From NCBI RefSeq assembly GCF_017348835.2, contig NZ_CP071375.1: a stretch of DNA of 64,000 bases; one strand, 5' to 3'. Under the pieces are notes generated by a model. It made no database searches and was not told the DNA's origin. It saw nothing but the letters and a program-made list of their open reading frames with translations. Shown here one piece after another: positions 24,797-26,347 of the stretch; the first letter of the stretch is position 1, and every line of letters starts with the position of its first letter. The DNA is from Escherichia coli (GTDB taxonomy: Bacteria > Pseudomonadota > Gammaproteobacteria > Enterobacterales > Enterobacteriaceae). The position numbers and the translations under genes are program-made.

Positions 24797-26347
24797 ATGC
24801 AACGTCGTGATTTCTTGAAATATTCCGTCGCACTGGGTGTGGCTTCAGCCTTGCCACTGTGGAGCCGTGCAGTTTTTGCGGCGGAACGCCCAACGTTACC
24901 GATCCCTGATTTGCTCACGACCGATGCCCGTAATCGCATTCAGTTAACTATTGGCGCAGGTCAGTCTACCTTTGGCGAGAAAACTGCAACTACCTGGGGC
25001 TATAACGGCAATCTGTTGGGGCCGGCGGTGAAATTACAGCGCGGCAAAGCGGTAACGGTTGATATCTATAACCAACTGACGGAAGAGACGACGTTGCACT
25101 GGCACGGGCTGGAAGTACCGGGTGAAGTCGACGGCGGCCCACAGGGAATTATTCCGCCAGGTGGCAAGCGCTCGGTGACGTTGAACGTTGATCAACCTGC
25201 CGCTACCTGCTGGTTCCATCCACATCAACATGGCAAGACCGGGCGACAGGTGGCGATGGGGCTGGCTGGTCTGGTGGTAATTGAAGATGACGAGATCCTG
25301 AAATTAATGCTGCCAAAACAGTGGGGTATCGATGATGTTCCGGTGATCGTTCAGGATAAGAAATTTAGCGCCGACGGGCAGATTGATTATCAACTGGATG
25401 TGATGACCGCCGCCGTGGGCTGGTTTGGCGATACGTTGCTGACCAACGGTGCAATCTACCCGCAACACGCTGCCCCGCGTGGTTGGCTGCGCCTGCGTTT
25501 GCTCAATGGCTGTAATGCCCGCTCGCTCAATTTCGCCACCAGCGACAATCGCCCGCTTTATGTGATTGCCAGCGACGGTGGTCTGCTACCTGAACCGGTG
25601 AAGGTGAACGAGCTGCCGGTGCTGATGGGCGAGCGTTTTGAAGTGCTGGTGGAGGTTAACGACAACAAACCCTTTGACCTGGTGACGCTGCCGGTCAGCC
25701 AGATGGGGATGGCGATTGCGCCGTTTGACAAGCCGCATCCGGTAATGCGGATTCAGCCGATTGCTATTAGTGCCTCCGGTGCTTTGCCAGACACATTAAG
25801 TAGCCTGCCTGCGTTACCTTCGCTGGAAGGGCTGACGGTACGCAAGCTGCAACTTTCTATGGACCCGATGCTAGATATGATGGGGATGCAGATGCTAATG
25901 GAGAAATATGGCGATCAGGCGATGGCCGGAATGGATCACAGCCAGATGATGGGCCATATGGGGCACGGCAATATGAATCATATGAACCACGGCGGGAAGT
26001 TCGATTTCCACCATGCCAATAAAATCAACGGTCAGGCGTTTGATATGAATAAGCCGATGTTTGCGGCGGCGAAAGGGCAGTACGAACGTTGGGTTATCTC
26101 TGGCGTGGGCGACATGATGCTGCATCCGTTCCATATTCACGGCACGCAGTTCCGTATCTTGTCAGAAAATGGCAAACCGCCAGCGACGCATCGCGCGGGC
26201 TGGAAAGATACCGTTAAGGTAGAAGGTAATGTCAGCGAAGTGCTGGTGAAGTTTAATCACGACGCACCGAAAGAACATGCTTATATGGCGCACTGCCATC
26301 TGCTGGAGCATGAAGATACGGGGATGATGTTAGGGTTTACGGTATAA
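24797..26347 (+). CDS. cueO: multicopper oxidase CueO
   Basis: ATG at 24797 gives [28 protein letters not shown] (Tat RR signal), 516 aa; Met-rich insert; [13 protein letters not shown] copper site. Confidence 0.95.

Follow-up and report, generated by a model that had tools for sequence, protein, structure and literature searches.

The window analysed here is a stretch of 64,000 nucleotides of Escherichia coli DNA (contig NZ_CP071375.1), and our subject is a methionine-rich segment in the product of its cueO gene, a periplasmic multicopper (cuprous) oxidase. An earlier note, made from the sequence alone, had singled out this segment as an insertion that binds extra Cu(I) and might serve as an allelic marker. 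As far as sequence can tell, the segment is the methionine-rich domain already known in CueO of E. coli K-12, unchanged and in the form standard for the species. The gene, its signal peptide and the parts of the insert lie as follows.

24797..26347, plus strand: cueO coding sequence, 516 amino acids plus stop, assigned from the open reading frame (ORF) and its translation.
24797..24880, plus strand: probable twin-arginine translocation (Tat) signal peptide, amino acids 1-28, opening with MQRRDFLK, the twin-arginine motif visible.
25853..26023, plus strand: whole variable linker, amino acids 353-409 (57 amino acids), lying between RKLQ and INGQAFDM in the MAFFT alignment.
25859..25996, plus strand: methionine-rich segment, amino acids 355-400 (46 residues).
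25859..25933, plus strand: N-terminal, conserved half of the segment, amino acids 355-379, a methionine-rich helix over the type-1 copper; its boundary near amino acid 379 is approximate.
25934..25996, plus strand: C-terminal, variable half of the segment, amino acids 380-400, a flexible Met/His/Gly/Asn loop.
26111..26119, plus strand: codons D439-M440-M441 of domain 3, read in the translation; D439 and M441 are the other two ligands of the Cu5 site.

The translation matches CueO entries in the PDB over its full length (for example 5b7e and 1kv7; 99% identity over 516 amino acids, E = 0), and 513 of the 516 residues are those of K-12 CueO in that database, the only differences being G61E, S271N and A464T. 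Three Pfam domains were found, each above its curated cut-off: Cu-oxidase_3 (E = 6e-32), Cu-oxidase (E = 9e-8) and Cu-oxidase_2 (E = 4.5e-25). The type-1 copper ligands H443, C500, H505 and M510 and the trinuclear-cluster histidines H101, H103, H141, H143, H446, H448, H499 and H501 are all present in the translation, and the type-1 residues at all four positions recur in 120-122 of 123 aligned sequences (119 cluster representatives, three Citrobacter-type homologues and the window protein). The mechanical ORF listing begins 13 codons further upstream, at a TTG; with the ATG at 24797 as the start, the N-terminus reads MQRRDFLK. The Pfam TAT_signal model matched amino acids 1-20 slightly under its cut-off (E = 2.9e-4, 21.1 bits against 22.7), and the mature PDB chain 1kv7 begins at query residue 29, a start that agrees with cleavage of a Tat signal. 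Upstream lie speE and yacC on the opposite strand and downstream lies gcd, an order shared with annotated E. coli chromosomes, and annotation puts cueO at this position in thousands of E. coli genomes. Every feature that defines CueO and can be checked in a sequence appears to be in place, and the gene reads as cueO of E. coli, as the earlier note had named it from the letters alone.

The segment lies within the interval 25850-26010 given in the earlier note, and the peptide quoted there was matched exactly. Its 46 residues include 14 methionines (30%) and 5 histidines (11%), whereas methionine fills only 15 of the other 471 positions of the protein (470 residues and the stop symbol; 3.2%; Fisher p = 8e-9). 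When the residues of CueO were shuffled 20,000 times, the richest 46-residue window never reached 14 methionines (mean 6.3, maximum 12), and the runner-up, among the 144 stop-free stretches of at least 100 amino acids that the six frames of the 64-kb window contain, held 7. The methionine enrichment is real and far beyond chance, while that of histidine is marginal (p = 0.04). The methionines are spaced as five MxxM, three MxM and two MM pairs. Clustered MxxM and MxM thioethers are also a feature of the copper-trafficking proteins Ctr1 and CusF and of PcoA/CopA-type oxidases, a chemical resemblance in a different protein context, and we know of no sequence homology between the segment and these Mets motifs.

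Compared with K-12 CueO (YacK; PDB 1KV7, 1N68, 3OD3 and 3NT0 among others), the segment shows no difference at the protein level (46/46 residues identical), and its DNA differs by two synonymous changes in 138 nucleotides (98.6%). Further points in common with K-12 are the place of the segment in domain 3, the genes around cueO, the CueR-type promoter and the probable Tat signal. All published copper ligands associated with the segment are present in the window protein, namely M355, D360, D439 and M441 for Cu5, M358 and M362 for Cu6, and M364, M368 and M376 for Cu7. The helix and ligand assignments for the N-terminal half follow the Fig. 1 legend of PMC11494321 and passages of PMC6155172, and the role of D439 and M441 in the Cu5 substrate site is described in PMC11494321. 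An antisense ORF of 81 amino acids (25895-26140, minus strand) overlaps the segment. It is rich in histidine because CAT, a histidine codon, is the reverse complement of ATG, the methionine codon; without support as a gene, it was treated as an artefact of this complementarity.

The segment had also been described as an insertion relative to other multicopper oxidases, and this was borne out by a comparison of 119 full-length representatives of 50%-identity clusters, which were drawn from a whole-library HMMER search and aligned with MAFFT. The linker from the end of the strand at RKLQ (residue 352) to INGxxxDM (residue 410) ranges from 5 to 79 amino acids across these representatives. Its median length is 11 amino acids against 57 in E. 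coli, a length matched or exceeded in only four of the 119. Linkers of at least 20 amino acids occur in 33 representatives, and in 19 of these they contain at least 15% methionine, compared with 3.3% elsewhere in the same proteins. Most of the more distant multicopper oxidases in the PDB align to CueO in two stretches, with a break around residues 290-370 where the first stretch extends so far; this stretch stops at 353-358 in CotA, the Thermus multicopper oxidase (MCO) and laccases, and earlier, at about 319-342, in FtsP/SufI and bilirubin oxidases. Searched alone against the PDB, the 46-residue peptide retrieved CueO entries of E. coli type (E about 1e-23) and nothing else apart from a weak match to CueO of Hafnia alvei (8r4f, E = 8.6e-5). 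With a linker of 57 amino acids against a median of 11, the segment is a lineage-specific insertion, at a site where methionine-rich inserts recur.

Between species the length of the insert does vary, as had been proposed. A word-indexed search of 5.8 billion proteins placed E. coli CueO in a cluster of 8474 members at 90% identity, and CueO measures 516 amino acids in Escherichia, 519-521 in Citrobacter amalonaticus and 539 in C. freundii/portucalensis, with one variant of 544. Citrobacter CueO is 83-86% identical to the E. coli enzyme overall and has the same flanks, and its helix half is nearly invariant. Every length difference in the Escherichia/Citrobacter alignment falls in the second half, after residue 389 (between 25963 and 25964 of the window), where the loop of Citrobacter is 3-28 residues longer. 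The loop DNA of C. freundii contains a 15-bp tandem array, GGCAATATGAAYCAY, of 3-4 copies of GNMNH-like units as reported by Tandem Repeats Finder, whereas the E. coli loop has no DNA repeat. The 544-residue allele of C. freundii equals the common 539-residue allele plus exactly one such unit, a length polymorphism within that species. The repeats lie at two loci outside the window:

L012 2656-2772 and L014 2656-2766: C. freundii cueO loop repeats, 15-bp coding units.

Hafnia alvei CueO (8R4F; Delta-Met form 8R4H) is a strong match in the PDB as a full protein (E = 6.8e-217). It has the same fold, the same type-1, trinuclear-cluster and Cu5 residues, and likewise a methionine-rich helix followed by a disordered loop (PMC12041951). 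This loop is 22 residues longer and contains more methionine, and the enzyme outperforms E. coli CueO (EcCueO) on chelated Cu(I) (PMC12041951). Other three-domain oxidases, namely Thermus thermophilus MCO (2XU9), Aquifex McoA and Ochrobactrum CueO (6EVG), also have a methionine-rich element near the type-1 copper according to the introduction of PMC11494321, but these elements are much shorter than that of E. coli CueO or placed elsewhere. The same introduction states that deletion of the Thermus hairpin brought no rise in phenol oxidase activity and no change in Cu(I) oxidation. In our searches the Thermus entry aligned to CueO in two stretches stopping at residue 357, and Ochrobactrum CueO aligned in a single stretch. 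We infer that purifying selection acts on the conserved helix half, for its function at Cu5 and as a lid, while the loop half is free to change in length between species.

What the segment does can be read from a rich literature on K-12 CueO, and the copper binding, lid effect and recruitment role described there would carry over to the window protein by identity of sequence. The methionine-rich helix packs over the type-1 copper (PMC11494321, PMC6155172), and the loop that follows it lacks electron density in most CueO crystals and is resolved only in 3OD3 (PMC6155172; PMC12041951, section 7). In published crystal structures, Cu5, Cu6 and Cu7 sit on residues all of which occur in the window protein, and soaked crystals show several copper atoms on the insert (PMC11494321, Fig. 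1 legend). Contaldo et al. (2024, PMC11494321) report Cu5, where the insert meets domain 3, as the only substrate site in the oxidation of Cu(I), and mutations at Cu6 and Cu7 had no effect in their study. Delta-Met variants kept their activity on free or weakly chelated Cu(I), and on Cu(I) bound to bicinchoninic acid (Cu(I)-BCA) they retained 10-20% (PMC11494321). The authors of that study concluded that the methionines jointly form a transient surface that recruits Cu(I).

We favour, with a probability of about 85%, the view that this is CueO's known methionine-rich domain and that it acts as a lid, as part of the Cu5 site and as a recruiter of Cu(I). Its first half would fold as a methionine-rich helix over the type-1 copper and form a lid that excludes bulky organic substrates. 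M355 and D360 of this helix, together with D439 and M441 of domain 3, would build the labile Cu5 site, at which substrate Cu(I) would dock and be oxidised; the electron would then travel through the type-1 copper to the trinuclear cluster, where O2 is reduced. The other thioethers, in the helix and in the loop, would hold Cu(I) only transiently and would jointly strip it from strong chelators and hand it to Cu5. In Citrobacter, the length of the loop would be altered by gain or loss of the 15-bp GNMNH units.

Two published observations weigh against this picture. Cu6 and Cu7 were found to be important in a study cited as ref. 21 in PMC11494321, so that the literature is in disagreement on these sites. 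In addition, a Delta-Met enzyme complements a cueO mutant nearly like the wild type, both aerobically and anaerobically (PMC11494321, PMC12510620), and in the conditions tested the domain is thus largely dispensable to the copper resistance of living cells. The suggestion that the insert binds extra Cu(I) stands in outline, as the residues of Cu5 to Cu7 are all present, but it needs to be made more specific: a recent study finds Cu6 and Cu7 dispensable and gives the insert a part in recruiting Cu(I) (PMC11494321).

Perhaps the selected role of the insert is instead that of a steric gate, which buries the type-1 copper, excludes organic substrates and thereby confers specificity for metal ions, with the contacts between methionine and copper beyond Cu5 being incidental. 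The introduction of PMC11494321 and passages of PMC6155172 describe the insert as a physical barrier, the removal of which raises phenol oxidase activity about 33-fold, and a structure of an engineered deletion (2yxv) was among our PDB matches. A gate alone, however, leaves unexplained why long linkers in distant homologues are rich in methionine (the 19 of 33 noted above), and why the loss in Delta-Met variants is specific to strongly chelated Cu(I). Gating and recruitment are compatible rather than exclusive roles, and we regard gating as the selected function as possible, if unlikely.

Another proposal is that the insert assists maturation or docking with a partner, by helping apo-CueO to gain copper when it is scarce, before or after Tat export, or by taking Cu(I) from a periplasmic partner. 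CueO carries a probable Tat signal, and the authors of PMC11494321 offer this as an open alternative in their discussion; they also argue that the near-normal complementation by Delta-Met speaks against an obligatory partner, and we consider such a role quite improbable. Still harder to sustain is a copper sponge, in which the insert would sequester periplasmic Cu(I) stoichiometrically and protect by binding rather than by catalysis. The several coppers seen in soaked crystals would suit it, and the hypothesis is explicitly raised in PMC12510620. Under anaerobic copper stress, however, a catalytic mutant of the type-1 copper failed to complement while Delta-Met361-396 behaved like the wild type (PMC12510620), and resistance therefore stems from catalysis and not from binding capacity. 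Moreover, no extra bound copper was detected once excess Cu(I) had been removed (PMC11494321, discussion). The sponge is largely refuted by the complementation data already in hand, and we hold it to be very unlikely.

The remaining proposal, that the segment is a useful allelic marker, concerns variation within E. coli. Our sample of alleles comprised 59 and 58 genome rows (two evenly spread samples), 10 full genes, 19 copies from PLSDB and 14 cluster proteins. Of the 5426 complete genomes, 5423 contain the whole of the 261-bp stretch 25800-26060, with identities of 96.9-100%, and all 59 full-length sampled rows span exactly 261 bp. For the 138-bp segment alone, all 58 further rows are exactly 138 bp, the lowest identity being 94.9% and ungapped. 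The gene is 1551 bp long in 10 of 10 alleles chosen across the range of identity (K-12, O157:H7, UTI89 and the lowest-identity strains among them) and in 19 of 19 copies from PLSDB plasmid records, and the 46-residue segment occurs in all 14 cluster members, including those of Shigella flexneri and Escherichia albertii; one entry of 529 amino acids merely starts at the upstream TTG. No length variant of the segment was found among about 160 sampled alleles of E. coli, Shigella and E. albertii, a sample that sets an upper bound of about 2% on the frequency of small indels.

Nor is the segment unusually variable in sequence. The peptide is that of K-12 in most alleles, and the 14 methionines and 5 histidines are invariant in 11 aligned E. 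coli alleles; the amino-acid variants are G399S (UTI89, 4/0, 20377 and others), G378E, G392D, A377T (E. albertii) and, rarely, M364V. Variable sites make up 9 of 138 positions (6.5%) of the segment compared with 9.1% of the remainder of the gene, and pairwise diversity is 0.024 in the segment, 0.032 upstream and 0.019 downstream. At a scale of about 5400 genomes, the identity bands of the segment (545 / 4745 / 140) are similar to those of another 138-bp stretch of cueO taken as a control (792 / 4575 / 63). Tandem Repeats Finder, run at a minimum score of 30 on 25750-26100, found no tandem repeat. Neither tandem DNA units nor within-species length differences, the two marks of a hypervariable repeat marker, were found in the E. 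coli alleles sampled, and as a length-polymorphic marker the segment plainly fails in this species. We give next to no credence to a hypervariable tract whose length would differ among E. coli strains: lengths do differ between genera, and the C. freundii alleles of 539 and 544 amino acids differ by one 15-bp unit, but the sampled Escherichia and Shigella alleles show uniform length, near-complete coverage, a lowest ungapped identity of 94.9-96.9%, no repeat, and a density of single-nucleotide polymorphisms that is not elevated. The earlier note had itself asked for the insert length to be compared with K-12 and across E. coli: the alleles agree fully in length and almost fully in sequence, and because copper binding is established its finding is only partly refuted, the use as an allelic marker being the part that fails.

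Several individual alleles deserve mention. The rare E. coli CueO variant P0281, in the cluster of P0001, carries M364V, a change in a published Cu7 ligand, together with G399S; this allele fits the published dispensability of Cu7. The first 300 nucleotides of cueO have the highest density of variable sites in the sample. In strain 3R (locus L004, NZ_CP049348.1), 12 amino-acid substitutions are clustered in residues 18-63 (about 24848-24985 of the window) of an otherwise ordinary gene, which suggests that its 5' end may be a recombinant mosaic from a diverged lineage. The cueO of strain L37, the single outlier (locus L001, 1434-2966, NZ_CP034589.1), is annotated as a frameshifted pseudogene and matched at 88% identity with partial coverage. 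About 600 bp of it (window about 25435-26050), including the methionine-rich segment, is scrambled and has stops in all three frames, with flanks near-identical to those of other E. coli; it was rejected as a natural variant allele on these grounds and is most likely an error of assembly or consensus, or a decayed pseudogene. Two database proteins, P0008 and P0009 (470-471 amino acids), were likewise rejected as natural deletions of the segment, since their gaps lie in domain 2 and the segment is intact. A further protein, P0002 (500 amino acids), carries a duplication and a truncated C-terminus; each of the three comes from a single contig.

Two regions flanking cueO also drew our attention. 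Upstream lies a putative promoter:

24721..24751, plus strand: cueO promoter with CueR-type operator, TTGACC (-35), the dyad CCTTCC-N7-GGAAGG and TATGCT (-10) with a 19-bp spacer, 46-76 bases before the start codon.

This pattern was found a single time in the window, against an expectation of 0 from 100 shuffles, and the operator is presumably that of CueR, given what is established of the CueR regulon. A scan for canonical sigma-70 promoters with spacers of 16-18 bp found none upstream of cueO, since the 19-bp MerR-type spacer exceeds this limit. Downstream, the spacer between cueO and gcd (26348-26548) is polymorphic in length, measuring 201 bp in the window, K-12, O157:H7 and others and 46 bp in 3R, UTI89, 4/0 and 20377. 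The longer form contains a GC-rich hairpin (26369-26386) and two palindromes resembling repetitive extragenic palindromic (REP) elements (about 26415-26442 and 26481-26512), and the shorter form lacks the 155-bp REP block.

A further observation concerns copies of cueO on plasmids. The 98.5-kb IncY plasmid pE6474.2 (NZ_CP116983.1, locus L016, 7624-13361) carries an E. coli chromosomal fragment of cueO and gcd corresponding to 24748-27136 and 27635-28328 of the window, with an internal deletion of about 498 bp in gcd. The plasmid has phage-type genes (portal, head-processing protein and lysozyme), and its cueO is flanked by two 1330-bp copies of an IS10-like element (ISVsa5), in the manner of a composite transposon. 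Pig and human isolates of E. coli and E. fergusonii have similar copies on plasmids of 96-100 kb; IncY was typed in the one record examined. Of the cueO promoter, the captured DNA includes only what follows a point within the -10 hexamer; the CueR operator is therefore missing, and expression would need another source, for which the insertion sequence is perhaps a candidate.

The segment is already known, a textbook feature of an enzyme that has been studied intensively, and a copy identical to the reference has little discovery value in itself. For typing of E. coli the insert is unfit as a length marker, with 46 residues throughout the sampled E. coli, Shigella and E. albertii, and the adjoining cueO-gcd spacer would serve better. 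Such variation in length as occurs, from genus to genus and inside C. freundii, stays within the flexible loop half of the segment and arises by 15-bp repeat units. It is tempting to speculate that loop length is an evolutionary tuning element, in which gain and loss of GNMNH-type repeats sets the number of methionines and histidines and thereby fits the extraction of Cu(I) to the chelators of a given niche. On this reading the repeats may be active and still polymorphic in C. freundii; Hafnia would have an expanded loop, and Escherichia one frozen at a minimal 1.5 units without repetition. We offer this only tentatively and think it rather unlikely to hold, and, if true, it would go beyond the published comparisons of two enzymes, though as a modest extension of ideas already in print. 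The functional picture of the CueO insert has itself shifted, with Cu5 now the substrate site and the other methionines a collective Cu(I)-recruiting surface rather than fixed extra sites.

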